Positions 483 through 24,361 of a DNA stretch of 45,252 nucleotides are shown here, piece by piece. The notes beneath the pieces are model-generated. The model saw only the letters and a program-made list of their open reading frames with translations. It did no database searches and was not told the DNA's origin. Both the position numbers and the translations under genes were made by a program. Position 1 is the stretch's first letter. Each line of letters begins with the position of its first letter. Source of the DNA: a virus; the IMG/VR virus record IMGVR_UViG_3300027852_000010, one strand, 5' to 3'.

Positions 483-483
483 T

Positions 484-3400
484 ATGAGCTGGCTAACTGA
501 CGTACAAGAGCAAAATAAATCTTTAAAAATAGTTGATCCACAATCCACCTTCATTCAAAATTCAAACGTAGATTTGGGAGAATCGTCTGAGAGTTCTGAG
601 AGTTCTGAAGTTCCTGAAACTTCTAAATCCTGGCTGACTACTGTTAAAGATCAGGTTAAGGAAGAGACAGATAGGGAAACAGGATTTCAGAAAGGTATGA
701 GATGGCTTAAGGAAGATTCTTTTAGTGATACCGTAGATGTATTTGCAGGTGCGCATGAAGCTACGACACAACTTCTCTGGGGAGCTCTATCATTTGAGGC
801 GTCTATTGCAGCTGGTACTGCAAGAATGAGTTACGAGAAAGCTAGAAATTTAGTGGTAGGAGATAAACGTAAGAGATCTCCAGAGAAAGTATTAGAGAAA
901 GTTCAAGATACTCAGCATTGGCTACCTGGATTACTCCCTCCTCCTAAGACACAATTAGCTAAGAGTGTTTTAGAACCTGTAGGAGACGTATTTCATTGGC
1001 TCTTTACAGGACCTAGAAAGATTGGTAAGGATATGACGAAGTTCTATGGACCTAATGCTGGATGGCTTTCAGAACAGATTCTTACTTTAGGAATGTGTAG
1101 ACTTGGGCATATAGGTGGGAAAGAGTTATCAGGTAAAATTGGAGGGATGATTAAAGATGCTAAGGGGGCTAAAGCAAAGAAGGTTGCCGCAGAGTTAGAT
1201 GCGATTCTTAAAGAGGCCCAGGGATCTAAAACTCCATCTAAATATGATACAGCTTTTCAGAAGAAGGTCAATGAGTATGAAGCAATTCTTCAAGCAGAGT
1301 GGGAATTAGAAACTGCCAAGTATGAAGCAGGTTTAAAGACTTCTGAACTTGCCTCTGCAGATCCAGGTTACGTAAAGAGTGGTAAGCCTCCAAAACTTCC
1401 TAAGATTCCTAAGGGGCGTATTATAGAGTTTGCTGAAGCTGCTAAGGAAACTCCTGAATTATCTTTAGCTGAAAAACCTACTCCAATTAAGATGACCTTA
1501 GATACTATCAATAAAGCTAAGAAACGGCGAGAGAATCTTATAAAGAATTCTATACATAAAGAAGCTCCAGTAATGACTGAAAAAGTTACTTCTACCGATT
1601 CTGGTTATACAAAGAGTAATAGACCTCTAAAACTTCATAAGATCCCTAAGAAACCTACTAAAGAATTTATTGAACCTGTTAAAGAAACTCCTAAATTATC
1701 ACCGGTTGAGAAACCTAAAGCAGTTAAGATGACTTTAGATACCCTCAATAAGGCAAAGAAGCGTCGAGGTGGTTCTGTAAAAGAGCCTATTCTAACAGAA
1801 ACACAAGCAATGCTTAAGAGAATTCCTAAGTTTGAGGATACTATAGAGGCTTATAAGTATGCAGAATCCGTAACAAAAGAACAGATGAAGGATATAGAAC
1901 TTTATAGAGAACTCTCTCTAAAGAAAGTGAAAGATCTTAAAGCTGCTGGAGATATATCAGGAGCTTTTTTAGAAAGTCAGCATAGTCAGTTATATAGAGA
2001 GGTAATAGAGCGTTATAATAATGAGGGATCAGCTAAGCGGGAAGTTTCTAAACCTTTAGATAAAACTCCAGCTAAGCCTGAGATTGCTAAAGCTGAAATC
2101 AAACTTTCAGAAAGAGCTCAGGTAGAACAGGAGGCAAATTTAGAAACTGCCCAAGATATGGGAATCTATGATAATATTAAAGAGTTACTTGGGAAGAAAA
2201 AGACTTCTCGAGAAATTCTAACAGAACTTAAGAAGGGAGAATTTTTTGAAGCGGATTTAGAAGATTTTAAGCTTACTAAACGAGATGTTGTTTCTGCAAT
2301 TCAGGCAGTACGTATAGCAGAGTTTAAAGATCCTAAGGCTGTTAAGTATTTAGAAGCTTCTATTAAGAAGGAAGCTGAGAAGGTTGAAAAATTAAAGGAG
2401 ACTAAAAAATCTGCTAAGAAAGATAGAGTTAATCCTGAGACTGGAAGAGCTCCTGGAGTGCCTACGTTAAAACGAAAGTTTGATCTTGGAACTTCTGAAA
2501 TATTAGAAACATATAAAGCTCGCCAAAAGCCTCTAACTTCATCTGAAGGAAAGATTATAAAGACCCGAAGTATTGCAGAAAAGAATGCCAGAGATCAAGG
2601 TTTAATGGGAGAGCTTGTGCGAGATTCTTCTGGAAAAGGATGGATAGTTAAATCTACTGAAAAGATAACAAAGCCAAGTAATAATGAATTACAGAAACTT
2701 CAAGAAACTTGGGATAATATTTTAGATAAAGATCTTAAGAAAGAATCTGCATCAAAAGAATCTTATGACGCAACTACATGGGACGGTCTTTTAGATTTGA
2801 TTAAGAGTGAGAAGGGCTCTGTTAAGATTGATTCTGCAGCTGTAAAAAAGACTATTAAGAAGATTCTATGGAATGAGAAAGGGTCAATGAGACCTGATGC
2901 CTTTACTCTTCCTGCTACAGAAACTATAAAACTTTTAAAACGAGTTGAGAAGAGATTAGAAAAAACTAAGTATATAAGAAACTTTAATCATAATGAGAAG
3001 CAATTAGTTGAAGAATTAATGTATATGCATACTAAAGGAAAGTTTGATTTAGATGTTACTTATGGGAAGGGGGGAATTGAAAAGAGAGTAGGTTTTTCTC
3101 CTAAGCATAAGATGGATAAATTTCCTCAAACAGAAGATACATTAGCGGGGGATATTACGAATAGAAAATCTATTCCATTTGAAGACAATTCTATGAATTC
3201 TATCTTATATGATCCCCATTATTTAGTCTCCCCTACAGGAATAAAATCAAAAGGAATAATAGTAAATCGTTTTGGAGCTTCTCAGTCTCTTAATCATTTA
3301 TGGCAGATGCTTGATTTAGCATCCGAGAATCTTTTTGCGCTTCTTAAGCCAGGCGGAAAATTAGTAGTTAAGATTCAAGACGCTACTTATCATAAAACTA

Positions 3401-6803: not shown

Positions 6804-7262
6804 CTACTTCTCCTTTAAGTTAAATGTTCTTACAGTTAATCGATCATTATTCATAGCAACTATCAATCTTGACTCTTCATCATAGAACTCATCTTCAGCA
6901 CAGACTATTTCTGAAATCCCCGCTAAGATAATAAGCCTTAAACAACTCTTACATGGGATACATGTAGATATGTATAAAGTACCTCCTTGGGTAGCTACTC
7001 CTCTATAAGCCGCCACTGCTATACACTTCGCCTCTGCATGAATAGCTGGACATACGTCTAAACCCTCTCCAGATTGATGCCCCAAAGATCTTTTGTAACA
7101 GGAATCTTTACACTTCGTATCATGCTGAAGAGTAGTATTCCATCCTTCAACTAAGAATGCTCCGGCAGAATCTGTAATTAGTACTCCTACTTTCCTACCA
7201 TGACATACAGAGCGTTTAGCAAGGTCCATAACATTCTTATAATAAAACTTATCACTGCTCAT
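6804..7262 (-). CDS. dCMP (deoxycytidylate) deaminase
   Basis: Zinc-binding motifs HAEAKCI and PCKSCLRLI at the spacing typical of the CDA/dCMP deaminase fold. Confidence 0.8.
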   Translation of the reverse strand: MSSDKFYYKNVMDLAKRSVCHGRKVGVLITDSAGAFLVEGWNTTLQHDTKCKDSCYKRSLGHQSGEGLDVCPAIHAEAKCIAVAAYRGVATQGGTLYISTCIPCKSCLRLIILAGISEIVCAEDEFYDEESRLIVAMNNDRLTVRTFNLKEK

Positions 7263-7790: not shown

Positions 7791-9011
7791 TTATTCACCT
7801 CCTTTGTTTGATTTTTGAACACAGTCATCAGGTTTATAGATTATTATAGTCTTCCCACGGGAACTTGAGACTGTATCTATAAAATCTGCTGTCTTTAAAG
7901 CTTGTAAGTATTCATCTAAATCTCCTTCACTCATATACATTAGAAATTCCTTCATTAATATATCCTTAGATACCTCCTCATTTATTGCAATAAAGTGCAT
8001 TAGACGTTTGAGATTTTCTGCCTTACTAAACTCCCCTGCATACTGAAAAGTTCTTGGCATTTTTACCTCAGTTTCTTCTAAGAAACGTATAGATTCTTTT
8101 AAGTGATCTTCTGTAATAATCATATCATCTGACTCAGCTGCAGACATTACCATGCTGAGTTTAAATAGATGTGTAGGACGTCTTTCCCAGTAATTCCCAA
8201 AGTGAATAGGATCAAGAGTGCTTTCTTCTGGATAGTTTCCATACCAATCTGACCAATATTGTAGAAAACCTTTAGTAACTTTAAAGTCCCCTCGTAGTGA
8301 TCTAATCTTTGTAAGATCCTCAATAAGATCTTTTTCTAAAGCTATTCCCTCTTCTGAGAGAGTGAAGAATGGACATACTATTCGCTTCTTTATTCTCTCT
8401 TCATATATAAAGATGATCCTACTTGTAAGACCTATTCCAATTGTTTCAGTTGACATTGTTTCTTTAATCTGATTAGGAGTTGTCGCCCCAATGAGAGTTA
8501 GGAAAACCCCTATAACTTCTTCTACATCTCTTGATATAGTTTCATATCGGAAGAGATCTAAGCAGTCATAGAAGTTACAGAGATTTGAAATTAACTCTTT
8601 GTTAGCAAAGCCTAGGAAGACTGCCAGTTCTGGAGAGAATGCTGTAACAGATGAGTGACTTTCAAAATAGCCTTCCTCAGAAGATTCCTCTGTATAAGTA
8701 CTCTCACTCATTCTTCTAATCAGAGCTTGAAGAGATGTAGTGTCACTGATAAGAGATATATTCATCTTATCAATAAACTTCCGAGCGAAAGCCATCGCAG
8801 TTCCTTTACGAGCTCTTCCTGGAGGAGCTACTAAAACCAGATAAAAGTTAGGATAGAAAACTAATGATCCCCAGTTTAATCTGCATTTTCTCTGAAGTGC
8901 TGAAGATATGACAGATACTCCCATCCATTCTTGAAATTTTGTAGGAGGCTCTGAATCATGACAATAGTGTACGTAACTTTTAAGCCAGTTTTTACAGAGT
9001 CTCTTAGACAT
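7791..9011 (-). CDS. Putative P-loop NTPase, DUF3987/D5-like replicative helicase candidate
   Basis: Motifs read: NFYLVLVAPPGRARKGTAM (deviant Walker A) and SRIIFIYEE (Walker B-like). The start overlaps the polymerase stop by 8 nt. Confidence 0.5.
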   Translation of the reverse strand: MSKRLCKNWLKSYVHYCHDSEPPTKFQEWMGVSVISSALQRKCRLNWGSLVFYPNFYLVLVAPPGRARKGTAMAFARKFIDKMNISLISDTTSLQALIRRMSESTYTEESSEEGYFESHSSVTAFSPELAVFLGFANKELISNLCNFYDCLDLFRYETISRDVEEVIGVFLTLIGATTPNQIKETMSTETIGIGLTSRIIFIYEERIKKRIVCPFFTLSEEGIALEKDLIEDLTKIRSLRGDFKVTKGFLQYWSDWYGNYPEESTLDPIHFGNYWERRPTHLFKLSMVMSAAESDDMIITEDHLKESIRFLEETEVKMPRTFQYAGEFSKAENLKRLMHFIAINEEVSKDILMKEFLMYMSEGDLDEYLQALKTADFIDTVSSSRGKTIIIYKPDDCVQKSNKGGE

Positions 9012-11499
9012 TATTAATCTTCTCCCAACTTAATTTTAGATTATTCGCAAGATCTTCTGAGAAATCTATATGAATACTTGTCTTTTTATTATCCTTATTT
9101 AAACTTCTTCCCATTGTTAAATCAGCAGGAATTGTAAAAGTTCTTTTATTATGAGTTGTCAGAGGTATCTCAAGACTCTCCTTAATAAGTTTCAGCATCC
9201 TGGCATGATCGTCCCATCCAGCATCTATAGGAATCTGAAAATCAATCTCATCATGAATCTGCCGCAAAAGTTCTACAGGTTTAAAGAGATCTTGATTATA
9301 ATAGATATAATTTATCCCTTTTTTATTTATAATATCTCCTACGGTTCCCTGTGGGATACAAGAATAAGCTTCTTTAAAAGTCTTATCAGCATTTCTTCCT
9401 GTTAAAGGACCAAGAAAAACTGTCTTCCTTCCCATTAGATTCTTAAGAATTCTAGTTGTCCTAAGACTCTTCCTAACATATGCTTGAAAAGATTGTTGAA
9501 CTCCTGGATAGAGCTTATGATAAGCATTATAAATTAGCTTACCATCCTTTTCTGGAATCTCATTTGCTAATGCAAAATTCTTATAACTCCAGTCATAGTT
9601 AAATCCGTGATTTGCTTTCTTTCCCCAGAATCTCCACTCCTGAGTCCCGTCCCCAATAGGTGCTAAATCTTCTACACTAATCTTATCTAAGTCATACCCA
9701 GCTCCATAGAAAGTCTTCATAATCATCCGGGCAGTTTTAGAATGTACATCTTCTTCAGTCTCAAAGCATCGAATCATTTCTAATATATCACCTACATAAG
9801 CTACGATTCTATTTTCGGCCTGACTAAGATCAAATGCGTAATAGATATATCCAGGATCAGGGATCAGAAAATCTTGTATATGATGAGGAAAATTCTGAAG
9901 ATTCGAACCACTTCCCCATAGATTCTTACTTGAGGAGATTCTACTATAACGAGTTCCTACAGGATTATAAGAACATCTGATACGTTTATCTTCATCTATC
10001 TTAGTTATATCAAGATAGGTAGATCTAAGCTTTGTAAGTTTTCTAATCTTCTGTATGATCTTAGCCTCTTTCCAGCCCTTACGAATTAATCTCTTCATAG
10101 CTAAATCATTATAAGTAGTCTTTCCCTTAGCTTTATAAGGAGTTATTCCCTTCTCATGAAAGAAATACTCATTGAGTTGCTTTGGACTTTTAGCATTTAG
10201 AGGTCTCCCTGCAATAGTATCAAGTTCAATCTGAGCTGCTTCTAATTGTTTTTTATGATCTTGTGCTGACTCTTCCATCTTAACAATATCAACTCTAATT
10301 CCCCGCTCCATCATATATACCAGGGGGGTTATTAAAGCTATTTGATTCTTGTAAGTATCTAGAATATTTAATTTAGTAAGCTCCTCTCGCTGTTTCGGAA
10401 AGGCTTCATCACAGATAAGGGCATCAGTTGCATTATATTTCCAGAACTTATAATACTGTCCGCCTCCAGCAAAGAATGCCTTACCATCTGCTTTGTAATA
10501 AGGATGATCTGTCCAAATAGACGTAATAAAATCTAACCCTTTAGAATAATCTGCCATAATCATCTGCTGAGCTACCATAGTATCATCTATATTAGAAGTT
10601 CTAATTCCATAAGTTCTTAGTAGGAAGTGATTATCAAATGTTAGATTCTGCCCACAGATCTTAATCTTAGGGTCTTCTAATATCTTCGCAATCAATCTCC
10701 ATATCTCAGCTTCTTGTGCTATCGTAAAATAATCTCCTTGATGATCTGCAAAAGGAATACATATTGATTGAAGGCCTACTGCAAAAGCAATACAACTTAT
10801 CTGCTTATATTCACGATTCATATATACTTCAATATCGTAACTAATTCTACTTCCTGAGAGACCTTTATTATAACAGAAATCTAAGAACCTCATTACAGTC
10901 TTAAAGTCAGGTTCAAGTTCATAAATTCTTTCTGTAGGTACTACAAGATCCTCAGTATAACTTTTTAAACGCTTCAGATCAAAGATAAGAAGCCTTCTGT
11001 TTAGATAATTATTCTTAGGAGGAATTATAGTAGCTGGATGTAATGTAGGGATAACTTTTCGACCAGGAATCAGAGTACAATCCAGTAGACTTCCTCTCCA
11101 TTTAGTTATTCCAGTTCTACCCGCCAGAATAAATAATGCGACTCCTCCTATAGCTAAGATATACTTAGTAGAAGTCTTAGATAATTCCCATTTAAGAAAC
11201 TCTATATACTCTTTCCCTCGTTCACTTATGATAGGTTCTGCTAATAGCCGAGAATTATTATAAAGCTGAATATAAGAATCCATAGGACGATCTAGATCCT
11301 TTATAATATTTGTTAGGTATATCAAAGGTCTGCTGATGTTAGCGGCTCCTAAGCAATCATCTAACTCTTTCCCAGCTTGTCCAACAAAGACTTGTCTACG
11401 TTTAACCTCTTCCCGTCCTGGCTGATCACTAACTCCTACATAAGGAGCAGTTATATTCTGAGACGGAGGAACTGTTGTATGTGATTTAGGAAGTTGCAA
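9004..11499 (-). CDS. polA: Family A DNA polymerase with 3'-5' exonuclease and an N-terminal family-4 UDG-like domain
   Basis: Pol motifs: A YYAFDLSQAENRIVAY, B RFWGKKANHGFNYDWS, C IHDEIDF. Exo motifs: SYDIEV, GQNLTFD, YNATDAL. N-terminal motifs: GVSDQPGREE...FVGQAGKELD and LHPATI. TTG start after AAAGGAGGG. Confidence 0.9.
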   Translation of the reverse strand: MQLPKSHTTVPPSQNITAPYVGVSDQPGREEVKRRQVFVGQAGKELDDCLGAANISRPLIYLTNIIKDLDRPMDSYIQLYNNSRLLAEPIISERGKEYIEFLKWELSKTSTKYILAIGGVALFILAGRTGITKWRGSLLDCTLIPGRKVIPTLHPATIIPPKNNYLNRRLLIFDLKRLKSYTEDLVVPTERIYELEPDFKTVMRFLDFCYNKGLSGSRISYDIEVYMNREYKQISCIAFAVGLQSICIPFADHQGDYFTIAQEAEIWRLIAKILEDPKIKICGQNLTFDNHFLLRTYGIRTSNIDDTMVAQQMIMADYSKGLDFITSIWTDHPYYKADGKAFFAGGGQYYKFWKYNATDALICDEAFPKQREELTKLNILDTYKNQIALITPLVYMMERGIRVDIVKMEESAQDHKKQLEAAQIELDTIAGRPLNAKSPKQLNEYFFHEKGITPYKAKGKTTYNDLAMKRLIRKGWKEAKIIQKIRKLTKLRSTYLDITKIDEDKRIRCSYNPVGTRYSRISSSKNLWGSGSNLQNFPHHIQDFLIPDPGYIYYAFDLSQAENRIVAYVGDILEMIRCFETEEDVHSKTARMIMKTFYGAGYDLDKISVEDLAPIGDGTQEWRFWGKKANHGFNYDWSYKNFALANEIPEKDGKLIYNAYHKLYPGVQQSFQAYVRKSLRTTRILKNLMGRKTVFLGPLTGRNADKTFKEAYSCIPQGTVGDIINKKGINYIYYNQDLFKPVELLRQIHDEIDFQIPIDAGWDDHARMLKLIKESLEIPLTTHNKRTFTIPADLTMGRSLNKDNKKTSIHIDFSEDLANNLKLSWEKINNV

Positions 11500-11725: not shown

Positions 11726-13117
11726 TTAGAAATTCTTATGAATCTTAATGATATAGCTTTCAAAATACTCCTGACTAAGATCAAAGCCAATAGATACCAT
11801 GTTATTCTGAGCTGCAGCTATCATAGTATTCCCACTTCCTGCGAATGGCACAAGTACATTAGCCCCAGGAGCTGCAAATACATTCAGAATATCTTTTAAA
11901 AGAGCTACTGGGCGTTCAGTTGGATGTACTTTAGATTGAGCAGGGACAGGTTTATAGTTAAATACATTCACAGTTCCCCGTCGATTTAATTCAGGTACGC
12001 CTTTTCTGGCAAGAAAGAACATTTCATATCCCTTTCCGAGATCTCTATGAGGTTGCATAGTTTGCCCAGATATATTGGTAACTCCATCTTCAGTAACTTC
12101 TCCTTTTGCCCAGATTGCAGGCATTCTTTTATTTTTAAATCCTGCATTTATGAGAGTATTATGAACAGTCTCAAACCACGGATCAGGCCCGAACCAGCAG
12201 ACTAACCAACAGTTAGGTTTAAGGACTCTAAAACATTCAGTAAGTAAGTCTCTGAGAAAAGTAGGGTACTCATTCTTATCTACTTCATTATAACCAGTAT
12301 AAGAATAATCCTTCTTCTGATCTTCAAGATCTATTCCATACGGAGGGTCAATCTCAATAAAATCCATAGTAGAGTCTCCGATCTTCTTAACTCCCTTAAA
12401 AAAATCTTCTACATGATAAGATCCTATAAGTTTAGATTTCTTACTCTCCCCATCTCCCATAGTTTTCTTAAATTGTTTTGCATCATTTTTCTGTTGAATA
12501 ACTTTTTTAACGTGCTTAATAGCTTTCTGGGCATCATTTTTAGTTTTAAATTTACTCCAATCTATATCAGGTGTATTCTTCATCATCTTTGCAAGACTGA
12601 TATCTCCTGAAAGAGATCCTTTAGATTTCCCTGTCATATTTGAGAGATCTTGTAAAGACCAACCTGGAGCATCTTTTGCAGTAGATGTCTTAACCCCATG
12701 AATCTGCTGTTGGAGATCTTGAATATGCTCTTTAAGATTGCACTCTTCCTGCCAAGTAAAATCCTTTCGGTATAAATTCTCTGCAAATTCTAAGACTCTC
12801 ATTTGAAGTTCAGGAAGTTTTTCAGGATAATATCTACAGGAGATAACTTCTGACTGTTTTTTCTGATCACAGAGATGCTTAAGAGCAGCATATCGTCTAC
12901 CACCTGCAACAAGTTTATAAGGAAGCTCTGCGGAATCTAAGTTCTTCTGAACTGCCAGAGGCTGAATCAGGCCATCTTTATTAATTGATGCTGCAAGGGC
13001 TTCTAAGTTTCCAAGATCTTCTCTAAATCTTTTACCTACTTCTATCTGAGATAATTTTATATCTATTAATTCTATCTGACTAATCTTAGTATTCAGATTA
13101 ATTTTACTTCTCTCCAT
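11726..13117 (-). CDS. ParB-like nuclease domain fused to a beta-class N4/N6 DNA methyltransferase
   Basis: Motifs read: LIQPLAV...LVAGGRRYAAL (ParB N-terminal box), IEIDPPYGI (motif IV), VLKPNCWLV and VLVPFAGSGNT (motif I). Confidence 0.85.
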   Translation of the reverse strand: MERSKINLNTKISQIELIDIKLSQIEVGKRFREDLGNLEALAASINKDGLIQPLAVQKNLDSAELPYKLVAGGRRYAALKHLCDQKKQSEVISCRYYPEKLPELQMRVLEFAENLYRKDFTWQEECNLKEHIQDLQQQIHGVKTSTAKDAPGWSLQDLSNMTGKSKGSLSGDISLAKMMKNTPDIDWSKFKTKNDAQKAIKHVKKVIQQKNDAKQFKKTMGDGESKKSKLIGSYHVEDFFKGVKKIGDSTMDFIEIDPPYGIDLEDQKKDYSYTGYNEVDKNEYPTFLRDLLTECFRVLKPNCWLVCWFGPDPWFETVHNTLINAGFKNKRMPAIWAKGEVTEDGVTNISGQTMQPHRDLGKGYEMFFLARKGVPELNRRGTVNVFNYKPVPAQSKVHPTERPVALLKDILNVFAAPGANVLVPFAGSGNTMIAAAQNNMVSIGFDLSQEYFESYIIKIHKNF

Positions 13118-15370: not shown

Positions 15371-16372
15371 TTATAAGGATAACTCTACCTTAACAGGTTC
15401 CTCTAAAGGATTCCAGAAATCTATCGCAAATCCGATTGGAGGAGTTTCTGCATGTTGGAGAGGATTCGCCCATGAACGACAGAAATCATGATACTGACAG
15501 CCAAACCAGTTCGAACAACCTGTGGTATTCATAGGAAAAGATTGCATTATAGGTTTAGAGTCAGATTCTTCTGTGAGACTTTGAAGATTCAGATCTATCA
15601 TATCCAGCCACATTATAGCATTATTCAGCCACTGATTCATGATATCCTTATTATGATAAATAGGAACTTCCATATAGTCGAAGTGGCGAAAGGGATCTTT
15701 AGCATCAGTCTTTGGATTATCTTTTGTCTTTTTAAAGAAAGTTCCATCGATGATAACTCCCCTGACGTCTTCCGGCTGATAAAGACAATTCAGGACATGA
15801 TTATAAGTTCCAATTTGCATACTGAGATAGAATTGAAGTGTCCAGTTCCATGTATTAGATCCTGTCTTATGTTCCAGAGAGCTAATTCCATGACGATTCT
15901 TTATAACAGTATCCATCTTAAAACTGATCATGTGCGTCTCTGTCAAATTTACAGTTCCACCAATCTCTACCATAGGCTTATCTCCATGATAGACAAGTTC
16001 ATAATCTTGCATGAATTTCTCCCGCATTGTAGCATAATATGCGAGGGCAAGATAAGCTCTTGCAGGAGTCTTCGGCGTATATATCTCATCATCATCAGGA
16101 TCAATAAATGCCCGATAATATGGGAGAAAGTGGTTATAGAAGGCTTCTTTAATGGTAATCTTATTAAATCCATTTATATAAAGATAAGCTAAGGCCTCAT
16201 GCCAGGCAGATCCAAAGATTAGATGAATATTCGGGCGATCTAAGCGCCAACCGAGAGCATATTCAAAAAAATATTTCCTTGGACACTCCATAAAGCACTT
16301 TACTTTTGTAGAATCCTGGATATTCCACGTAGGGTGAGTTAGGATAGGATACCAAGCGTTAAGATCTATCAT
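15371..16372 (-). CDS. PD-(D/E)XK nuclease, Cas4/RecB-like exonuclease with a Cys cluster
   Basis: Motifs read: GSAWHEAL, MDTV...LEHKTG (D...ExK) and QIGTYNHVL (QxxxY). Cysteines: CFMECPRKY at the N-terminus and CSNWFGCQYHDFC at the C-terminus. Confidence 0.75.
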   Translation of the reverse strand: MIDLNAWYPILTHPTWNIQDSTKVKCFMECPRKYFFEYALGWRLDRPNIHLIFGSAWHEALAYLYINGFNKITIKEAFYNHFLPYYRAFIDPDDDEIYTPKTPARAYLALAYYATMREKFMQDYELVYHGDKPMVEIGGTVNLTETHMISFKMDTVIKNRHGISSLEHKTGSNTWNWTLQFYLSMQIGTYNHVLNCLYQPEDVRGVIIDGTFFKKTKDNPKTDAKDPFRHFDYMEVPIYHNKDIMNQWLNNAIMWLDMIDLNLQSLTEESDSKPIMQSFPMNTTGCSNWFGCQYHDFCRSWANPLQHAETPPIGFAIDFWNPLEEPVKVELSL

Positions 16373-16556
16373 AATCTCCTCCTAAGTTTATTAAAAGTTT
16401 GAAATCTCTTTCAAGATCCATTCTGATCTTTTTAATATCCTTAAAAGCTTTTATTATAAGGTTTTCTATAAACTCATACTTTATAAGATCCTTCTGAATA
16501 CGTTTTTTACAAAGTTCTATTTGATTATTTAATTCTTTTATATCCTTAGCCCCCAT
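16359..16556 (-). CDS. Hypothetical protein (65 aa)
   Basis: SD AGGAGACTGAAATT is present. The ORF overlaps the nuclease gene start. Confidence 0.65.
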   Translation of the reverse strand: MGAKDIKELNNQIELCKKRIQKDLIKYEFIENLIIKAFKDIKKIRMDLERDFKLLINLGGDYDRS

Positions 16557-16560
16557 AATT

Positions 16561-16890
16561 TCAGTCTCCTATTATCACTCTTTCGAGATATTTCTTTTTA
16601 TTATTTTTCTCAGTAAAGAGTAAAAGATTAAGTCTTTTATGCTTATTAGTTAATATAAACGCTGCTACCAGACAATGCATAGATAAACCTGATACAAGTA
16701 GATAATCATCTGGAGTACTTTTTGATAACACAGGCCAGAAGATTCTGTATGCTTGACTGGTAGAAAATTTTTGAAGATTATTTTTTGAGAGAAATACTAA
16801 ATCTCCAAAATCCTCTGCCGCAGAAAAATCATGAGTAGATTTATTTACTACATAAACTTTAGGTCTTTTAATCTGTGACAGTTTAATCAC
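16561..16890 (-). CDS. Hypothetical protein (about 109 aa; start codon uncertain)
   Basis: The track's GTG start directly abuts AAGGAGG. A CTG 9 nt downstream is also possible. Confidence 0.6.
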   Translation of the reverse strand: MIKLSQIKRPKVYVVNKSTHDFSAAEDFGDLVFLSKNNLQKFSTSQAYRIFWPVLSKSTPDDYLLVSGLSMHCLVAAFILTNKHKRLNLLLFTEKNNKKKYLERVIIGD

Positions 16891-16899
16891 CTCCTTTAT

Positions 16900-17256
16900 T
16901 TAGATATTTTTAAAAAGTTTTCGTTTCTTAAATTCAGCTTGCTTACCAGGATTCCAATCTGAGACTGGTCGAAGAAATCCTACTACTCTGGAATATACTG
17001 CACATGGTTGATAGTCTTGCAGAGTATTATTCTTTTCATAGCAAGATTCACATTTTAAAAAAAGTTTACGATCCTTTTCAGTTATTCCTATTTGAGGGCT
17101 AAATAATGCCCCTCCAGTAATAACTATCTTACCATCTTCTTCTATATCAGCATCAATACATACAGAGGATTTACAGTCATGACAGGTACCTTCAAATCTG
17201 ATTTTACTTGATTTTGCTTCCTTAAAGTATTCTTGCAATTCCTGTAATTTCATCAC
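16900..17256 (-). CDS. Stand-alone NrdD C-terminal-like glycyl-radical domain protein (118 aa)
   Basis: CHDC...CESC Cys pairs are followed by YSRVVGFLRPVSDWNPGKQAEFKKRK. This matches the class III RNR C-terminal signature R-x-x-G-[YF]-x...WN-x-GK-x-x-E. Confidence 0.7.
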   Translation of the reverse strand: MMKLQELQEYFKEAKSSKIRFEGTCHDCKSSVCIDADIEEDGKIVITGGALFSPQIGITEKDRKLFLKCESCYEKNNTLQDYQPCAVYSRVVGFLRPVSDWNPGKQAEFKKRKLFKNI

Positions 17257-17278
17257 TTTCCTTTTTGTTCATCTTTGT

Positions 17279-17464
17279 TTATACTTCTATTAATTCAATA
17301 ATTTTAGTACCATCTTTAAATCCAATAAACTCCCTCCCAAAGTGTAAATTACCATCTTGACGTTTAAAGCACTTATGATTTGGATGATATTCATGAATTA
17401 AAGTAAACGTGTTACCTGTCCTTTCCTTATATGTTTTAGATACTTTTAATTGATCTTCTCGCAT
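17279..17464 (-). CDS. Hypothetical protein (61 aa)
   Basis: SD AAAAAGGAAAATAA lies before the ATG. Confidence 0.65.
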   Translation of the reverse strand: MREDQLKVSKTYKERTGNTFTLIHEYHPNHKCFKRQDGNLHFGREFIGFKDGTKIIELIEV

Positions 17465-17515
17465 TTATTTTCCTTTTTGCTATTAAGCCATAACATATCA
17501 GATATATCTATCTGG

Positions 17516-17809
17516 TTATACAATCTTATTACCATGTCTATAAGGCCTAGTTTTATTAAAAGCATGTTTCTTTAATATTTCTGTCTCAAGATCAAATGCA
17601 TATCCCGCTGCCGCATCAAGTACTCTAATTGCTATGTCAGCCATCTCCTCTTTAAAGTTCTCATGATCATTATTTCTATATGCCTCTAATGCTTCTGAAA
17701 CTTCGGAATGTATAAGGCAAAGTATCTCCGGTACAGGTCTTTCTGTCTCCCACCATCCATGATCTTTTGAATTTTTATGAATCTCTTGTTGTAGTTCTGA
17801 TATATTCAT
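17516..17809 (-). CDS. MazG-like nucleoside triphosphate pyrophosphohydrolase (all-alpha NTP-PPase)
   Basis: Motifs read: EVSEALEAYR and EEMADIAIRVLD, the E-x-x-E and E-E-x-x-D acidic helices typical of MazG. Confidence 0.7.
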   Translation of the reverse strand: MNISELQQEIHKNSKDHGWWETERPVPEILCLIHSEVSEALEAYRNNDHENFKEEMADIAIRVLDAAAGYAFDLETEILKKHAFNKTRPYRHGNKIV

Positions 17810-17841
17810 ATTTATTTTCCTTTCGTTTAGTTTCCCGGTAT

Positions 17842-17864
17842 CTTTGTTTAAATTTTGAATGAAG
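17842..17864 (-). promoter_or_regulatory. Phage motif copy M4 (CTTCATTCAAAATTTAAACAAAG), 32 nt upstream of ATG 17809, which has its own separate SD
   Basis: Read directly. Confidence 0.8.
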
Positions 17865-17865
17865 G

Positions 17866-18114
17866 TTAATCAACAGTTCTGGTATCATTTTCTAAATCAC
17901 AATGAATAAGGAAGTCTATAATTCCTTTTAACTTCCTTGGTTTAAGTTTCGGGTTATTTCTTAATTTTTCTTCTTCTCTCCATGAGATATGATCAATATT
18001 TGCCTCAATTCTACGAATCTTCAGACCTGAGTCAGCTTCAAATTTAACGAGTGTTTTTAAGATATCTACTTCAATTTTGTTCTTAGCTTCTTTAATTTCT
18101 GCGATTGTTTTCAT
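17866..18114 (-). CDS. Hypothetical protein (82 aa)
   Basis: SD TAAGGAGAATATAGT is present. Confidence 0.7.
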   Translation of the reverse strand: MKTIAEIKEAKNKIEVDILKTLVKFEADSGLKIRRIEANIDHISWREEEKLRNNPKLKPRKLKGIIDFLIHCDLENDTRTVD

Positions 18115-18141
18115 ACTATATTCTCCTTATTAGTTAAAAGT

Positions 18142-19020
18142 TTATAAGATTCCTTTATACTCTGTCTCTGTTTCTACTGCATTTACTATCTCTTTAGCTA
18201 TCCCGAATCTGGGAGTTTGGTTACTTGTAAGATTTTGATAGGAAATTAGAAGAAACTTACCGATTACTGATTTTCTATTCTCCCAAATAATTTTTCGATC
18301 AGAGTGATTAAATTCTCCTGCTGATACTTTAAACTTAGTTATATCAAAACCTTGGCAGACAAAAGATCCTACCATCCCAGTATGTTCTCCAGAACCTTCA
18401 ATTATATCTATGATTTTATAAATATCAGTTTTCTTTGGCTTAAACTTTAATATAAAACGGGATCGTTTACGAACATATGGAGATTTAATATATCTAATAA
18501 TAATCCCTTCATAACCCTGTTCAAGAAAATAATTATACTGCTGCATTATTTCCTGTAAGGAATGGCAAGGTATACTTGGGACTAACTTAAGATGATTAAA
18601 AGAATATTTTTTAAAAAGATTTAACAGTTCTATTAATCGTTTAATCTGAGGTTTATCAGAAACAATATCAAATATATGGTAAGATATCTTATCTGAATCC
18701 TCATGGAAATTCTTAGTTCTACTTACGATACTATTAATTTTATCAAAGTCCCAGCCATGACTGTAGAGTTCTCCATCAAGTTCTATAATATTTCTAATGA
18801 TGCTTAGTTCTTTTTGAATGTGAGACATTGAGAGAATTATACGTTCAGTTGAGCTTAGAAGAAATGGTTCAATAGAAGTTCCTGGATTACATAAAGCTCT
18901 CATACGTTCTCCGTCAAGTTTTGGCTGAACTATTACTGGCCAGGACCAACCAAACTTAGGATTAAGAAGTCTACGTTCTTCAAAAGGATAGCAAAGTTGT
19001 ATTCCTGTTCTCTCTCTCAT
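18142..19020 (-). CDS. ATP-dependent DNA ligase (minimal, 292 aa)
   Basis: Motifs read: motif I VQPKLDGERM (KxDG), motif IV EGIIIR and motif V ILKFKPKK. ATGA overlap with the upstream gene. Confidence 0.85.
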   Translation of the reverse strand: MRERTGIQLCYPFEERRLLNPKFGWSWPVIVQPKLDGERMRALCNPGTSIEPFLLSSTERIILSMSHIQKELSIIRNIIELDGELYSHGWDFDKINSIVSRTKNFHEDSDKISYHIFDIVSDKPQIKRLIELLNLFKKYSFNHLKLVPSIPCHSLQEIMQQYNYFLEQGYEGIIIRYIKSPYVRKRSRFILKFKPKKTDIYKIIDIIEGSGEHTGMVGSFVCQGFDITKFKVSAGEFNHSDRKIIWENRKSVIGKFLLISYQNLTSNQTPRFGIAKEIVNAVETETEYKGIL

Positions 19021-19328
19021 ATTAGATCTTTCATGGCGAGTATATTAAGTGCCTTCTTATATTCTGAAGGACTTTGACAGATAGGTATGAGAGCTATCTC
19101 AATTGGAAGATAATCTGTATCAGGTAAGATGTAAAATTTTGATCTATGCTTTTTTAACCTGGTATGAGCAGCTTCTTCTTTGTGCTCAACAGCTTCCATG
19201 CTATTAATTGTCTTTAAGGCTCTTTTTTTATCAAAGACAAAAGGGCTTCTGAAATATTCAGTTGTTCTAAATGATTTCCAGTATATTCGATATTTTAGTT
19301 CCTGTTCCTGTTCCTGTTCCTGTTCCAT
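19017..19328 (-). CDS. Hypothetical protein (103 aa) with an N-terminal (EQ)4 repeat
   Basis: The ORF lies downstream of motif M5 and a leader hairpin. The SD is weak. Confidence 0.65.
   Translation of the reverse strand: MEQEQEQEQELKYRIYWKSFRTTEYFRSPFVFDKKRALKTINSMEAVEHKEEAAHTRLKKHRSKFYILPDTDYLPIEIALIPICQSPSEYKKALNILAMKDLI
19298..19326. repeat. (GTTCCT)4.8 microsatellite encoding EQEQEQEQE
   Basis: Read directly. Confidence 0.95.
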
Positions 19329-19341
19329 ATTATGCCTTATA

Positions 19342-19369
19342 ACAGGAAGACCCGTTAAGATCTTCCTGT
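19342..19369 (-). other. Perfect 9-bp stem hairpin (acaggaaga / tcttcctgt, 10-nt loop) between motif M5 and ATG 19328
   Basis: Read directly. There is no U-tract on either strand, so it is not a canonical intrinsic terminator. Confidence 0.6.
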
Positions 19370-19402
19370 AAACGAATTGAGGGTTAATAGTTATATAACA
19401 TA

Positions 19403-19426
19403 CCTTTGTTTAAAAATTAAACACAG
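19403..19426 (-). promoter_or_regulatory. Phage motif copy M5, diverged (CTGTGTTTAATTTTTAAACAAAGG)
   Basis: Read directly. Confidence 0.6.
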
Positions 19427-19429
19427 AAA

Positions 19430-19861
19430 TCAGCTTCCTTTTGCCTCCATAAGTTTTTCTATCATTGCATCCTGCTCTTCATCAGACAGTTCTTTGAAAT
19501 AGTTTTCAGTGGCTTTGTTCATATCTACAGGCAGACGTTCCATAGCAACTCCAGGATGGAATTTCTCAGCAAGTTCCAGAGGATCTCGGGAAGCTTCCAG
19601 ATAGCTTCTCATAACACTTTGAAGTTTGATCTTCATCTGAGCCTTGGCAAAACCGTATACCAATTCTTCCCCGAACTTATCAACCATATCTGCCATATCA
19701 GCACCGAAGTTATAATAAATTCTCGCTGACTTTTTGTTCTTTTTTGCGTCAACAGCAATGTATCCAGTGTTATCAGGATCTGGATTCGGCATATCACAGA
19801 TCTGCTCAATTTCAATTACTACGGTTTCTGCGGCTTCTGCGGCTTCTACATTTTCAGTCAT
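19430..19861 (-). CDS. Hypothetical acidic protein (143 aa) with its own sigma70-type promoter
   Basis: SD TAAGGAGTAAATT is present and promoter P4 lies 60 nt upstream. The sequence is rich in D and E. Confidence 0.8.
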   Translation of the reverse strand: MTENVEAAEAAETVVIEIEQICDMPNPDPDNTGYIAVDAKKNKKSARIYYNFGADMADMVDKFGEELVYGFAKAQMKIKLQSVMRSYLEASRDPLELAEKFHPGVAMERLPVDMNKATENYFKELSDEEQDAMIEKLMEAKGS

Positions 19862-19927
19862 AATTTACTCCTTATAAGAATTAAGATTAAAAAATTTAGT
19901 GACCAATTCACTCATTCAATTGGAACC

Positions 19928-19956
19928 ATTTTACACCATCTATAAACAGGTGTCAA
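19928..19956 (-). promoter_or_regulatory. Sigma70-type promoter P4: TTGACA-17 nt-TAAAAT
   Basis: The reverse complement of 19928-19956 reads TTGACAcctgtttatagatggtgTAAAAT. Confidence 0.7.
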
Positions 19957-19992
19957 TATCTATCGAGTAGTATAAAATCATAATGAAATTTA

Positions 19993-20286
19993 TTAGAATG
20001 AAACCTTTCCAAATTTCTGAGTCACTCTAGAATTTCTTATATTTATAAGTTCATCTAATATATGTTGTTGAGATTTATCAAAAGTTTTATTTACATAAAC
20101 TCTTTCAGTATAGTTTTTCTGATACTTCTTAGATTTTTCAGGAATTATCTTAACTTTTTTAGCTTTGATATAGAGATTTAATGCAAGTTTACGTTGTTCT
20201 GCTGCAAGGATATTTCTTTGATCTTTAGATAGTTTTGAGTTTTGAAGCTTATAAACTATTCTATCATGACGTTCTTGAGTATTCAT
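19993..20286 (-). CDS. Hypothetical basic protein (97 aa)
   Basis: SD GAGAGG is present. The ORF directly abuts the upstream stop codon. Confidence 0.7.
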   Translation of the reverse strand: MNTQERHDRIVYKLQNSKLSKDQRNILAAEQRKLALNLYIKAKKVKIIPEKSKKYQKNYTERVYVNKTFDKSQQHILDELINIRNSRVTQKFGKVSF

Positions 20287-20775
20287 TTAAGACCTCTCTT
20301 TTTTATGAAATCGTTTCCAGCATTCTTTCATATTATGATGATTTTTACACTTACTTATATCTGCAATCCAGTCACCGTTAAGATGATTGCAGGTATCTAC
20401 GAATCCTGGAATCTTATAGCAACGATCTTGATCTGTTCTTAATGGACATGCAAGTCTTTCAATAAAAGATGGACGTTTTCCTGCAAGAAATTCTTCATAA
20501 CTAACTCCCTCTTTATCCATATCAATCTCACCTACACCAGAAAGGATAATCTTACCGAGACCTATCTTATAACCAGTTCCTTTTTGATAGACTCTTTTAA
20601 TATCATTTATTTTCTTTATTCCTGTAAAATCTTTATATGAGTAAGAATATTCATAAGATCCAGATCCATTACATTGACTACATATAACAGCTACTCCCGC
20701 TCCTTCTGCAAAATCTGAATATAATCCAGTTCCTCTACAAGCTGGACATTCTATTAATTTTTTTATATGTTTCAT
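20287..20775 (-). CDS. DnaJ-type CxxCxGxG zinc-finger protein (162 aa)
   Basis: CPACRGTG and CSQCNGSG repeats plus a C-terminal Cys/His-rich tail. Confidence 0.7.
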   Translation of the reverse strand: MKHIKKLIECPACRGTGLYSDFAEGAGVAVICSQCNGSGSYEYSYSYKDFTGIKKINDIKRVYQKGTGYKIGLGKIILSGVGEIDMDKEGVSYEEFLAGKRPSFIERLACPLRTDQDRCYKIPGFVDTCNHLNGDWIADISKCKNHHNMKECWKRFHKKERS

Positions 20776-21664: not shown

Positions 21665-23677
21665 TTAGAAATTGATTTTAATAGTTCTTGAAAAATCTCC
21701 CCTGACTACACATAATATAGAGTTTTTTTGCGTAGAAGAGAATCCAAGCCCACTAAGTTGTTTAGAACTTTCTTTTACCGACATCTTAGATCCTAAGACT
21801 TCAAATACTTTTCTATGTTCCAGAAGATCTTCTTTTAAAAACTCATTGAAGAATCCTCTTACTTGCTTATCTGTCTTACATTTATTTAAGATAAAGAAAT
21901 AGTGTTTGTTTCCTGTGGCTTCTCCCCAATGATTAGGTGAGTTCATAATCATATTTACTTTATGAAAACTTCCTGTTGGTATATTCCAGATATCTTTATC
22001 TTTAGAAATACTCGGTAAAGTTGATAAAAATCTTATTCCATTCTTTCTAGTAAACTCAAAGTTAGCCACTTTAACTTTTTCTTTAACCTTTCTGTTATAG
22101 TTAAAAAAAGTTGACTTTCCCTCATAAGATAGCTCAATCTCAAATCCTGTATCTATATGCTCTCTTAACGTATAGTTAACTACAAAAATCTCATAAATTC
22201 CTTCAATCATTCTATTCTTATCTGTCCAAGCAATATTTTCTACTGCATTTCTAGAAGTTTTAGGGCCGTTAGGAGTTACATTCATATCTACATCAAGATA
22301 ACCAGTTGTTTTAGTATTTTTCCTGTTATCAAAGAATATATGATGACCTCCTTCTGGTTCTTTGATATGAAGATCAAGATCATCATAATTATACCATGCT
22401 AATGAACATCTGAGAATTGCATCTACATTCCCTCCAGCTTTCTTAACCTTTGCTTTAATAGAATCTGTTACATCTCCATTATAAGTCCATGAGAAGTTAT
22501 TATTCCATTTAAAGATATTTGAGGTATTAGGAGTTTCTGAAGTGATGAGACTCATAAGATTCTTTTCATGACGATTCTCAAAGAAGATTTTAATTTCTTC
22601 TGCTTTTGGCAGGATATCTTTAATGAAAGTTTGAATACTTACATTCTCTACATTATTTAGATTCTTAAACTTTTCAGGAGTATCTTCTACTAACTGATCA
22701 AAGATATTTTCTGATTGATAGGAAGGATTATTTGTAAAGAGAATATTATTTACTGAAATATCTGACTGAACTGCGAATCTTCGATGAAGTGCTGATTCAA
22801 TCCCAAGTTTTTTGATCTGCTTCTCTGCTTTTCGTACCATATCTTTAGTAATAATGGCGGAGGAGCGCTTATAATTAGTAGGAGCTACTTTAGATTCAAA
22901 CATCTGAACAGCATTATCTAAACTTACCCCTGTTGAGATATCTGATATGAGAGTTCCTATGACAGTATTTCTAAACTTAGCAATACTTTTTAATTTCTTA
23001 GAAACTTGCCAACAATAGTTATCCTTATCAGAAATTTCTATTAAGTCATATTCATTCTTACACTTAAGAAATAACTCAACTACTTTCTTATGCTCTGCTC
23101 CTCGATATATTGAGTTTTGATTTATAAGATCCAGAGCGGTATTAATAGCTTCTGTTGAGAATTCTTTTAGACTTCTTTCAAATACATTCTTATTACTAAT
23201 ATCATTTGAGATCTGAGTGCCGATAGAATTACTTTGCAGTACAAATCTTTTAGGTAGTTTTAAAAAGAAGTGATCCCAATAAATATGCTTACCATCTTCT
23301 AAGAACTGTATATCATTATCAGCTCCCAGCTGGTCTTCAAAATGATAGAATGGTGAGATAATCTTTGCTGACTTAACTAATTTTGCAAGAGCATTTGCAA
23401 CTGGTTGATATCTTCCACCAACATCTATATCCCAGATACTGATCAGCTTATTATCTCTAATTCCTACCATATTACCACAAGTTCTGATAAATGATTTGCA
23501 ACACTCACAGTCATGCTCAGTACGAGTTTTATATATCTCATTCGTACCGGGCAGAAAACTTCCGAGATATGTATCCCAGAGATTTTCCTTACTCACATCT
23601 GTCATAAACAGTGCATAAGTTTTCATACTTTCAAACTGTTCATCTACCTTCATCTTAAATTCGCTAAAGTTCTGCAT
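21665..23677 (-). CDS. Large hypothetical protein (670 aa) with an N-terminal HDCECC cluster and a TerD-like C-terminal segment
   Basis: Motif M7 supplies AAAGGGGGA before the ATG. The segment DDLDLHIKEPEGGHHIFFDN...GYLDVDMN resembles a TerD-type beta-sandwich signature, but the resemblance is weak. Confidence 0.8.
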   Translation of the reverse strand: MQNFSEFKMKVDEQFESMKTYALFMTDVSKENLWDTYLGSFLPGTNEIYKTRTEHDCECCKSFIRTCGNMVGIRDNKLISIWDIDVGGRYQPVANALAKLVKSAKIISPFYHFEDQLGADNDIQFLEDGKHIYWDHFFLKLPKRFVLQSNSIGTQISNDISNKNVFERSLKEFSTEAINTALDLINQNSIYRGAEHKKVVELFLKCKNEYDLIEISDKDNYCWQVSKKLKSIAKFRNTVIGTLISDISTGVSLDNAVQMFESKVAPTNYKRSSAIITKDMVRKAEKQIKKLGIESALHRRFAVQSDISVNNILFTNNPSYQSENIFDQLVEDTPEKFKNLNNVENVSIQTFIKDILPKAEEIKIFFENRHEKNLMSLITSETPNTSNIFKWNNNFSWTYNGDVTDSIKAKVKKAGGNVDAILRCSLAWYNYDDLDLHIKEPEGGHHIFFDNRKNTKTTGYLDVDMNVTPNGPKTSRNAVENIAWTDKNRMIEGIYEIFVVNYTLREHIDTGFEIELSYEGKSTFFNYNRKVKEKVKVANFEFTRKNGIRFLSTLPSISKDKDIWNIPTGSFHKVNMIMNSPNHWGEATGNKHYFFILNKCKTDKQVRGFFNEFLKEDLLEHRKVFEVLGSKMSVKESSKQLSGLGFSSTQKNSILCVVRGDFSRTIKINF

Positions 23678-23709: not shown

Positions 23710-24153
23710 TTATAAGTATCTACTGGCAGCTAAGGATTGATAATAGAATGCGTGCAGAAATCCTATACTATAATCTTTCCCAATCTTCTGCATATGCCAT
23801 GCCCAGATAGCTCTTCCACTTCTTCCATTTCCATCTGTAAATGGATGTAAAGATTCATATTTATTATAAAGTTCAAAAGAAGTTAAGTCTGTTTGGTTTA
23901 GAAGATTTTTAACCAATTCTGCCATATTAGGATTTCCATAAGGTGGGATATAATCTCCTACCCGAATATTCATTCCTATCTTATCTCGAAGAACTGCCCC
24001 TGGTTGATAGATATCTACGAATTGCTTTAGATCGTCTAATGTGATTATAGGTAGAGATACAAAACGTAAATGTTCTAAAATTTCTAAATGCTTAGGAGGT
24101 CTTATAATTCCATCAATCTCATTACTTTCCTTTATAAAAGCTTCTACTCTCAT
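23710..24153 (-). CDS. fic: Fic-domain protein (147 aa), putative AMP-transferase
   Basis: Canonical Fic motif HPFTDGNGRSGR. ATG 24153 is preceded by GGAGATTAT. The track's longer ORF to 24249 would read through motif M8 and a microsatellite. Confidence 0.85.
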   Translation of the reverse strand: MRVEAFIKESNEIDGIIRPPKHLEILEHLRFVSLPIITLDDLKQFVDIYQPGAVLRDKIGMNIRVGDYIPPYGNPNMAELVKNLLNQTDLTSFELYNKYESLHPFTDGNGRSGRAIWAWHMQKIGKDYSIGFLHAFYYQSLAASRYL

Positions 24154-24170
24154 ATAATCTCCATAAATGT

Positions 24171-24193
24171 CTTTGTTTAAAATTTGAATGTAG
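24171..24193 (-). promoter_or_regulatory. Phage motif copy M8 (CTACATTCAAATTTTAAACAAAG)
   Basis: Read directly. It lies 17 nt upstream of the fic ATG. Confidence 0.8.
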
Positions 24194-24215
24194 TTATGAT
24201 TATGATTATGATTAT
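24194..24215. repeat. (TTATGA)3.7 hexanucleotide microsatellite
   Basis: Read directly. Confidence 0.9.
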
Positions 24216-24361
24216 CTTCCCTGTCGTAGTTCAAGAGCAATCTGATCACGTTTAGATATCTTTTTCAAGAAATACTTGACATCTCCAATCATCCAGGTAT
24301 ATGATATGATTAGATAGCTGAAGACTGAAATAAGTATTAGGCTTTTTATAATTCTTCTCAT
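24212..24361 (-). CDS. Small membrane protein (49 aa, below the ORF-track cutoff)
   Basis: Hand translation gives MRRIIKSLILISVFSYLIISYTWMIGDVKYFLKKISKRDQIALELRQGR. ATGA overlap with the upstream small ORF. Confidence 0.55.
   Translation of the reverse strand: MRRIIKSLILISVFSYLIISYTWMIGDVKYFLKKISKRDQIALELRQGR
24276..24305 (+). promoter_or_regulatory. Sigma70-type promoter P5 (TTGACA-18 nt-TATGAT), antisense to the early operon
   Basis: Read directly: TTGACAtctccaatcatccaggtaTATGATatgatt. It shares the TATGATATGATT block with P3. Confidence 0.45.

Follow-up and report, generated by a model that had tools for sequence, protein, structure and literature searches.

The locus considered here raises the question of why a virus would carry the last piece of an enzyme that it does not otherwise encode. 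The window, by which we mean the whole 45,252-nucleotide stretch of the IMG/VR virus record IMGVR_UViG_3300027852_000010, contains on its minus strand an open reading frame (ORF) at positions 16900-17256 that resembles the glycyl-radical domain (GRD) located at the C-terminus of NrdD, the class III ribonucleotide reductase (RNR). According to the ORF list and the sequence it reads as 118 amino acids (aa) from a GTG at 17256, which is the length given in an initial annotation made from the DNA letters, while an alternative ATG at 17253 yields 117 aa plus the stop codon. The ORF is real. The ATG is favoured because a Shine-Dalgarno-like AGGA (17259..17262, minus strand, read from the sequence) sits 5 nt upstream of it and because the public gene call on the source contig is an identical 117-aa protein (P0001). 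The real coding sequence (CDS) is thus most likely 16900-17253 on the minus strand, and the 117-aa numbering is used throughout. As judged from sequence comparison and a structural model, this gene encodes an autonomous NrdD-type glycyl-radical protein, that is, a predicted zinc-ribbon-anchored β-hairpin carrying Gly92, followed by the class III RNR C-terminal helix and devoid of the catalytic barrel.

The relationship to NrdD, which the initial annotation had proposed from motifs, is borne out by profile comparisons. The Pfam family NRDD (PF13597) matches residues 64-115 with its positions 519-562 of 562 (E=1.4e-10, 41 bits, cutoff 26.2), and an hhalign comparison of a 49-sequence family profile with 42 NrdD C-termini gives a probability of 99.9% and E=3e-31, the confident stretch running from KCxxC, equivalent to the CPxC of NrdD, through to the C-terminus. 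The NCBIfam NrdD equivalogs match the 117-aa protein only at their extreme C-termini, with 12-32 bits against cutoffs of 326-585 (TIGR02487, E=5.6e-8, being a local match only), and since they reach no further and remain far under cutoff, the protein bears the NrdD end-piece without being an NrdD. Pfam NRDD, TIGR02487, hhalign and the 4coi alignment mentioned below together delimit the NrdD-homologous GRD to residues 64-117 (16903..17064, minus strand, as are all further features of this gene). Within it, residues 83-113 are identical at 24 of 31 positions (~77%) to the NrdD C-terminal consensus CEVYSRVVGYLRPVSQWNxGKQxEFKDRKxF. The radical-loop motif, YSRVVGFLRPVSDWNPGKQAEFKKRK, contains Gly92, whose codon GGA occupies 16978-16980, and after P96 of the loop the sequence continues as WNPGKQAEFKKRK. 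The family profile also aligns, weakly (E=0.015), to residues 612-646 of the Thermotoga maritima NrdD structure 4coi, EYMRIVGYLVPVSAFN, which include an RIVGY motif; we take Gly621 to be the radical glycine of that enzyme. A single-protein phmmer search against PDB sequences returned no match. The protein is not of the pyruvate formate-lyase (PFL) type to which GrcA belongs, as Pfam Gly_radical (PF01228) does not match it even at E≤10 and the GrcA models in NCBIfam do not match it either.

The AlphaFold2 (AF2) model, obtained with a 22-sequence alignment, has a mean predicted local distance difference test (pLDDT) score of 83.4, rising to about 90 over residues 10-50. Its elements follow one another as a helix at residues 3-13, a four-strand β-meander with C24 and C27, a strand-helix unit with C68 and C71, a hairpin whose two strands (85-88 and 93-96) are joined by a turn that holds Gly92, and a helix at 102-110. 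The hairpin and the conservation of its residues define the glycyl-radical finger loop V86-Y-S-R-V-V-G92-F-L-R-P96 (16966..16998). Four invariant cysteines precede this loop: C24-H-D-C27 (17173..17184), a predicted zinc knuckle recognized from its codons and its conservation in homologs, and C68-E-S-C71 (17041..17052), a second predicted knuckle that hhalign places on the CPxC of the NrdD zinc site, being the only one of the two pairs to align there. The C-terminal helix and tail, W100-N-P-G-K-Q-A-E-F-K-K-R-K-L-F-K-N-I (16903..16956), delimited by invariant residues and by the AF2 helix, correspond to the tail that crosses the protein surface in the NrdD of Prevotella copri. In that enzyme the GRD (residues 676-739) is made up of a zinc site, a Gly loop that is buried, and the surface tail; since it is disordered in some states, it is a mobile module. 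A Foldseek search of the AF2 model against BFVD returned a single match, the homolog from virus ANMV-1 described below. TFIIH C1_4 and MDF1 were considered as relatives of the N-terminal half and set aside, their scores being below cutoffs and the similarity that of generic zinc knuckles.

A profile search of 1.84 billion representatives clustered at 50% identity evidenced a large family, with 4326 matches at E≤1e-3, of which 549 reach E≤1e-10. Every one of the best 150 of these 4326 is 53-159 aa long (median 118), and the 22 close homologs all have 112-132 aa. In the family alignment by hidden Markov model (HMM), Gly92 is kept in 147 of the 147 representatives that cover the site and Arg89 in 148 of 149, with strong conservation also at K67, V91, R95, W100 and G103. 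Among 22-23 homologs C24, C27, C68, C71, K67, W100, N101, K104, E107 and R111 are invariant and H25 is conserved in at least 90%. One viral member (L092:468-821; loci fetched for analysis are cited by L numbers) has a methionine in place of the near-invariant Arg89, TEWYSMVVGYLRPV. The Phe that follows the radical glycine where Tyr is usual, pointed out from the outset, is a minor variant found in 6 of 125 short homologs and in 1 of 49 NrdDs. Comparison of the window gene with its relatives shows saturated synonymous sites (proportion of synonymous differences, pS, about 0.8) next to a nonsynonymous proportion (pN) of 0.17-0.34, with pN 0.17 and pS 0.80 against L003; the sole unsaturated pair, L092/L093, gives a dN/dS of 0.24. 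The family gene is therefore under purifying selection and is not debris. There is no dedicated model for the stand-alone family among NCBIfam, Pfam and PHROGs. Within the phage collection its sole full-length relative is a 144-aa gene (L001:12507-12941; KP703175, AJP62049.1) of ANMV-1, an archaeal virus from anoxic methane-seep sediment. This homolog is annotated as 'anaerobic ribonucleoside triphosphate reductase' (nrdD), and the original paper inferred an oxygen-sensitive RNR from it; in fact, the 144-aa protein consists of the radical domain only.

The missing remainder of the enzyme is not found elsewhere in the same genome. Bases 1-127 of the window are identical to bases 45126-45252, and because of these identical ends (an assembly overlap) the genome is taken as complete, circular or terminally redundant, with about 45.1 kb. 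Pfam and PHROGs scans of its other large ORFs detected neither an NrdD barrel nor NrdG, the activase, and both ad hoc HMMs, built from 42 NrdDs and 58 NrdGs out of the fetched loci, and tblastn with four NrdDs found the 16900-17253 ORF as the sole match in the complete genome. The absence of barrel and activase noted at first sight is confirmed for the genome as a whole. Two candidates were rejected in the process: two CxxxCxxC motifs that might have indicated an NrdG lie antisense to real genes and are not matched by the NrdG HMM, and the 670-aa ORF at 21665-23677 (minus strand), envisaged as a hidden barrel, is a full-length member of phrog_1735/DUF8224 with no similarity to NRDD, to PDB entries or to the NrdD HMM.

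We have also analyzed the genomic surroundings of relatives, by scanning one genome per GTDB species and IMG/VR, which gave at least 596 and at least 578 confirmed stretches, respectively; the best 80 of each were analyzed with flanks of ±8-10 kb. Among the viral ones 74 are short ORFs, 33 of them with at least 104 aa, 20 with 70-103 aa and 21 with fewer than 70 aa, and the ±10 kb around each of these 74 contain neither an NrdD barrel nor nrdG. Neither in the window genome nor at the 74 viral loci do the short ORFs, which the initial annotation had suggested looking for, turn out to be pieces of a split or intron-interrupted nrdD. The shortest of them, of 40-56 aa, retain the Gly loop and the following helix only, without the zinc ribbon, e.g. 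MITRQRCEVYSRIVGYIRPISQWNPGKKSEFKDRKVFKAR; such mini-ORFs occur at L136:10028-10150, L144:4865-5017, L150:9989-10120, L155:10196-10318 and about 17 further places, equally with no nrdD or nrdG within ±10 kb, and those of L144-L146 are identical across three contigs. A different arrangement is that of the human gut phage MT835493 (L002:3033-5441), where a full-length 802-aa NrdD continues after the Gly loop into a glutaredoxin/NrdH-like C-terminal domain, TKTCPNCKMAKMMLDKAGIKY.

A distinct picture emerges from cellular genomes. There, 16 of the 21 ORFs shorter than 104 aa lie directly 3' of an nrdD barrel and 17 of 21 adjoin nrdG, with the small gene placed after nrdD and before nrdG; they belong to genomes of Patescibacteria, Bdellovibrionales and Chloroflexota. 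At seven loci (L028, L033-35, L039, L042, L046) a complete NrdD with its own Gly loop is followed by an extra small GRD gene, whose 32-aa radical segment shares 81-97% identity with the neighbouring NrdD and on average 71-83% with non-cognate NrdDs. At about nine others the NrdD stops just past the zinc site, with the Gly loop decayed or missing, and the small gene alone retains the motif: the NrdD of L036 ends in ...STVYLKVVMAD and a stop, that of L041 reads ...EVFLKVGEEE..., and L037, L038 and L043 are of the same type, while at L068, L076, L081 and L090 the Gly loop is borne by a 50-69-aa ORF. These splits are not frameshift artefacts, since the small proteins of L036-L043 have a distinct zinc ribbon of their own, and, as far as sequences can tell, at these loci the radical glycine must be provided in trans. 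The ~115-aa form, to which the window protein belongs, occurs in metagenome-assembled genomes (MAGs) of Desulfobacterales, Thermodesulfobacteriota and Syntrophales, with neither a barrel nor nrdG up to 8 kb away on either side of the copies analyzed. On Desulfobacterales contigs of 338-540 kb the gene is solitary, much as grcA is in E. coli, and is placed in several syntenic settings among housekeeping genes (AsmA, ribosomal protein S1, methyltransferase, peptidase S58); the binning of MAGs can misplace viral contigs, which does not affect contigs as large as these. The copy in an ANME-1 MAG (L011) lies inside a virus-like run of small genes.

Other peculiarities of the cellular forms were noted alongside. 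A pair of cysteines at the very end, after the radical helix (...ACCC, ...CGC, ...CC), is present in 11 of 15 cellular GRD proteins of 70-103 aa, among them those of L034, L035, L036 (L036:7986-8249), L039, L042, L043 and L046, and it is seen in none of 44 NrdD C-termini, in about 1 in 20 viral copies and not in the window ORF; the tails of class I and II RNRs, with their redox-shuttle cysteines, look similar. Two Patescibacteria MAGs (L074:6846-7283, L084:3450-3905) encode stand-alone proteins of 145-151 aa in which a Lys-rich N-terminus precedes the last ~135 residues of NrdD, spanning the final barrel strands, the zinc site and the Gly loop, while the fetched loci contain neither a barrel nor nrdG; they make up a fourth kind of free-standing NrdD end-piece. 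Locus L049, with an apparent stand-alone C-terminal fragment adjoining nrdG, was dropped, as it contains 900 masked Ns.

What would such a protein do for the phage? The explanation that we favour, with moderate confidence, is that the NrdG of the host places a radical on the phage protein and that this protein thereafter provides the host NrdD with a GRD or takes the place of its own. The spare-part idea of the initial annotation is strengthened by the cellular loci, where relatives lie between nrdD and nrdG next to an NrdD that is either complete or has a decayed Gly loop, and by the orphan ~115-aa genes of Desulfobacterales; the mobile GRD of P. copri NrdD and the action of YfiD and Y06I on PFL serve as precedents. 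The GRD gene would be expressed along with the phage genes for replication and nucleotide metabolism, and host NrdG, a radical S-adenosylmethionine enzyme, would abstract the C-alpha hydrogen of Gly92 on the free protein. The activated domain might then dock in a host NrdD barrel whose own GRD is absent, quenched or oxygen-cleaved, bringing Gly92 beside the finger-loop cysteine. Ribonucleotide reduction would restart, and the phage, in a host that is anaerobic and probably reduces sulfate, would keep receiving deoxynucleoside triphosphates (dNTPs) for its DNA synthesis. The analysis shows the homology, the stand-alone occurrence, the conservation in the family and the linkage of homologs to nrdD and nrdG, some of these NrdDs having no Gly loop of their own; we infer activation by NrdG, docking in trans, repair as the role and the identity of the host, and a repair of oxygen damage would look the same to computation as a general supply of radical subunits.

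A number of observations weigh against this explanation. NrdD cleaved by oxygen keeps the zinc ribbon on the barrel, so that a spare part with a ribbon of its own must either displace it or coexist with it. The N-terminal module, residues 1-63 (17065..17253; the helix and the β-meander with the first knuckle, delimited by AF2, hhalign and family conservation), has no confident NrdD counterpart by hhalign; CHDC, CESC and the loop are all present, as initially noted, and the first CxxC is specific to the family. When the AF2 model was compared with the PDB by Foldseek, no NrdD structure and no match at E≤0.001 came up, which we regard as uninformative and not as contrary evidence, given that an elongated domain of ~50 residues is there compared with chains of 600 aa. 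The identity between small proteins and their neighbouring NrdDs in the duplicate-type loci is a modest and non-uniform signal, the small protein of L034 being nearer to the NrdD of L035 than to its own. Finally, the closest named phage, Desulfofustis phage LS06-2018-MD01, lacks both the GRD gene and the whole small-gene cluster in which it sits, and for this reason the gene is regarded as an accessory insertion.

The same evidence has to be confronted with other explanations. The idea that the ORF has lost its function and is a mere relic, or that a piece of an nrdD split or interrupted by an intron was called as a gene by mistake, finds precedent in the split nrdD genes of phages T4 and phiAS4 and in the nrdD annotation of the ANMV-1 homolog, but it is effectively refuted by the complete genome without a barrel, by the 0/74 viral loci with a barrel nearby, by an N-terminal module that is not collinear with NrdD, and by the uniform length of 150 or more divergent clusters, together with an invariant Gly and purifying selection. 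A partner other than NrdD is also very improbable. The domain might serve another glycyl-radical enzyme (GRE) of the host, such enzymes being abundant in Desulfobacterota, or the NrdD-sized 670-aa phrog_1735/DUF8224 product of the phage, which has no assigned function and no Pfam-A or PDB sequence match; the Gly loop and tail of the domain are nevertheless nearly identical to NrdD C-termini, PF01228 does not match, the operon partners of relatives are nrdD and nrdG, and DUF8224 is missing from the other GRD-carrying contigs and has no similarity to NrdD or PDB entries.

Two further explanations retain NrdD and NrdG as partners. A free GRD could act as a decoy or inhibitor, titrating NrdG or plugging NrdD barrels and so shutting host dNTP synthesis for takeover or exclusion. 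A decoy of NrdG would likewise require a conserved Gly loop, and the phage has other host-manipulating genes, such as that of a Fic-domain protein; but a phage without its own RNR needs dNTPs, the family occurs within nrdD-nrdG operons of cells and at split loci provides the only Gly, which indicates a productive role, and the helix and tail beyond the loop are also strictly conserved, so we regard inhibition as improbable. A less remote, although still unlikely, explanation dispenses with oxygen altogether: the phage would add extra copies of a GRD that exchanges with or adds to that of host NrdD, so that a larger share of the barrels is active, or would serve hosts with a naturally two-component NrdD. 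The split loci, which show that the small protein can be the only Gly carrier, point in this direction, as does the P. copri NrdD dimer, in which the GRD is ordered in one of the two monomers only; moreover, the seep sediment that yielded ANMV-1 is permanently anoxic, and damage by oxygen is not to be expected there. On the other hand, the sampled Desulfobacterota-type NrdDs are complete (L080, L088, L089), and a resident covalent GRD would need displacing.

The remainder of the genome provides the setting. The GRD gene belongs to a cluster of small genes between the ligase and nuclease genes, composed of a MazG-like gene, a 61-aa ORF, the GRD gene and a Pam3_gp32-like gene; the MazG-like (17516-17809) and ligase (18142-19020) genes are indeed neighbours with a role in nucleotide or DNA metabolism, as was first remarked, whereas the dCMP deaminase gene then counted with them (6804-7262) is about 10 kb away. 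The replication module comprises the ligase, a PD-(D/E)XK nuclease, an AAA_24 ATPase, a ParB-methyltransferase fusion, a fusion of uracil-DNA glycosylase (UDG) and PolA, a DUF3987 primase-helicase and the dCMP deaminase, and the capsid module is SU10-like. In the precomputed Pfam matches, the DNA polymerase A at 9004-11499 (minus strand) has an N-terminal UDG domain and the product of 11726-13117 (minus strand) joins ParB_N to an N6/N4 methyltransferase. The Desulfofustis phage has the module order in common with the window and shares 48% identity in the major capsid protein and 43% in the DNA polymerase, and from this closest named phage the host is plausibly a sulfate-reducing Desulfobacterota; phage genomes searched by megablast with 15 kb of the window gave no match, and a search by sample accession for the habitat also returned nothing. 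The plus-strand ORF at 433-5877 (1814 aa) has no significant Pfam domain, only a sub-threshold GIDA match, and its product probably serves in the virion as a giant protein, structural or internal; a comparably large hypothetical gene occurs at 15927-20660 of the Desulfofustis phage. Also noted were the Fic/DOC-domain protein at 23710-24249 (minus strand, E=3.4e-6) and, within the tail module, a protein with RCC1 repeats (39434-40654, plus strand).

Taken beyond the single phage, the results bear on a recognized question. A June 2026 review of GREs (PMC13450708) states that spare parts are known for formate lyases only and that their existence for other GREs is undetermined, in agreement with the initial remark that no NrdD analogue of GrcA was known, and an earlier paper in the Journal of Biological Chemistry posed the same question. 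A large RNR phylogeny left out sequences shorter than 400 aa, and phage RNR surveys treat only split or intron-interrupted full genes. In the literature searched, which leaves most subscription journals outside coverage, we found neither an NrdD-type autonomous cofactor nor a split class III RNR. We consider the balance to lean slightly towards a large, unrecognised family of autonomous NrdD-type cofactors, in which case no radical module acting in trans, or as a spare part, would have been known before for a non-PFL GRE; they would be used by viruses of bacterial and archaeal anaerobes to keep the class III RNR of the host running with the host activase, and in some Patescibacteria, Bdellovibrionales and Chloroflexota would have become an obligate radical subunit, separate from the barrel, of a two-component class III RNR. 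For class III RNR, on which anaerobes depend, the family offers concrete, clonable spare-part candidates, and the NrdD barrels without a Gly loop, accompanied by a small gene between nrdD and nrdG, are natural experiments for radical delivery in trans. If the proposal is true, a product of 40-160 aa would suffice to exploit barrel and activase of the host, which adds to the auxiliary metabolic genes a new one that costs very little compared with encoding a 700-aa enzyme. The family also corrects the annotation of the ANMV-1 homolog, which had been read as a full oxygen-sensitive RNR.

Comparison with known systems clarifies what is shared and what is particular. The interrupted nrdD genes of phages (the group I intron of T4, the fragmented nrdD of phiAS4) likewise produce short nrdD-derived ORFs, but those are adjacent pieces of one full gene, whereas here the genome lacks a barrel and the N-terminal sequence differs from NrdD. 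The split class II RNR NrdJa/NrdJb, of Pseudomonas aeruginosa and others, has a separate C-terminal module with a zinc finger encoded 3' of the barrel and so parallels the split nrdD plus small-GRD loci; it differs in using adenosylcobalamin and in that the module carries redox cysteines and no radical. With the C-terminal GRDs of the T. maritima, P. copri and phage T4 NrdDs the window protein has in common the CxxC, the Gly loop xVYSRVVG[YF]LRP, buried in those enzymes, and the C-terminal helix and tail, but it is detached from the barrel, its putative first metal half-site is a CHDC on a new β-meander instead of the CPxH of NrdD, and its Cys pairs are spaced by about 40 residues instead of about 10.

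The closest functional parallel may be found in YfiD/GrcA of Escherichia coli and Y06I (vs.6) of phage T4, the only validated spare parts, both for PFL. These too are small (~115-130 aa) stand-alone GRDs with an N-terminal extension and no barrel, and a phage-encoded version exists; GrcA is encoded apart from its enzyme in E. coli, as is the ~115-aa form in Desulfobacterales. The proposed logic would also be shared, with an activase installing the radical and the domain replacing a damaged GRD. GrcA is nonetheless of the PFL type (IPR011140; PF01228), has no zinc ribbon and has a disordered N-terminal half, whereas the present family is NrdD-type (PF13597 C-terminus), with a putative four-Cys zinc ribbon and an N-terminal half predicted to be folded. 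Its presumed partners are NrdD and NrdG instead of PflB and PflA, and some cellular copies lie in an nrdD-nrdG operon and appear obligate. Compared with GrcA, the family would thus bring the same logic to a different homology group, a different architecture, that of the zinc ribbon, and a different partner enzyme.

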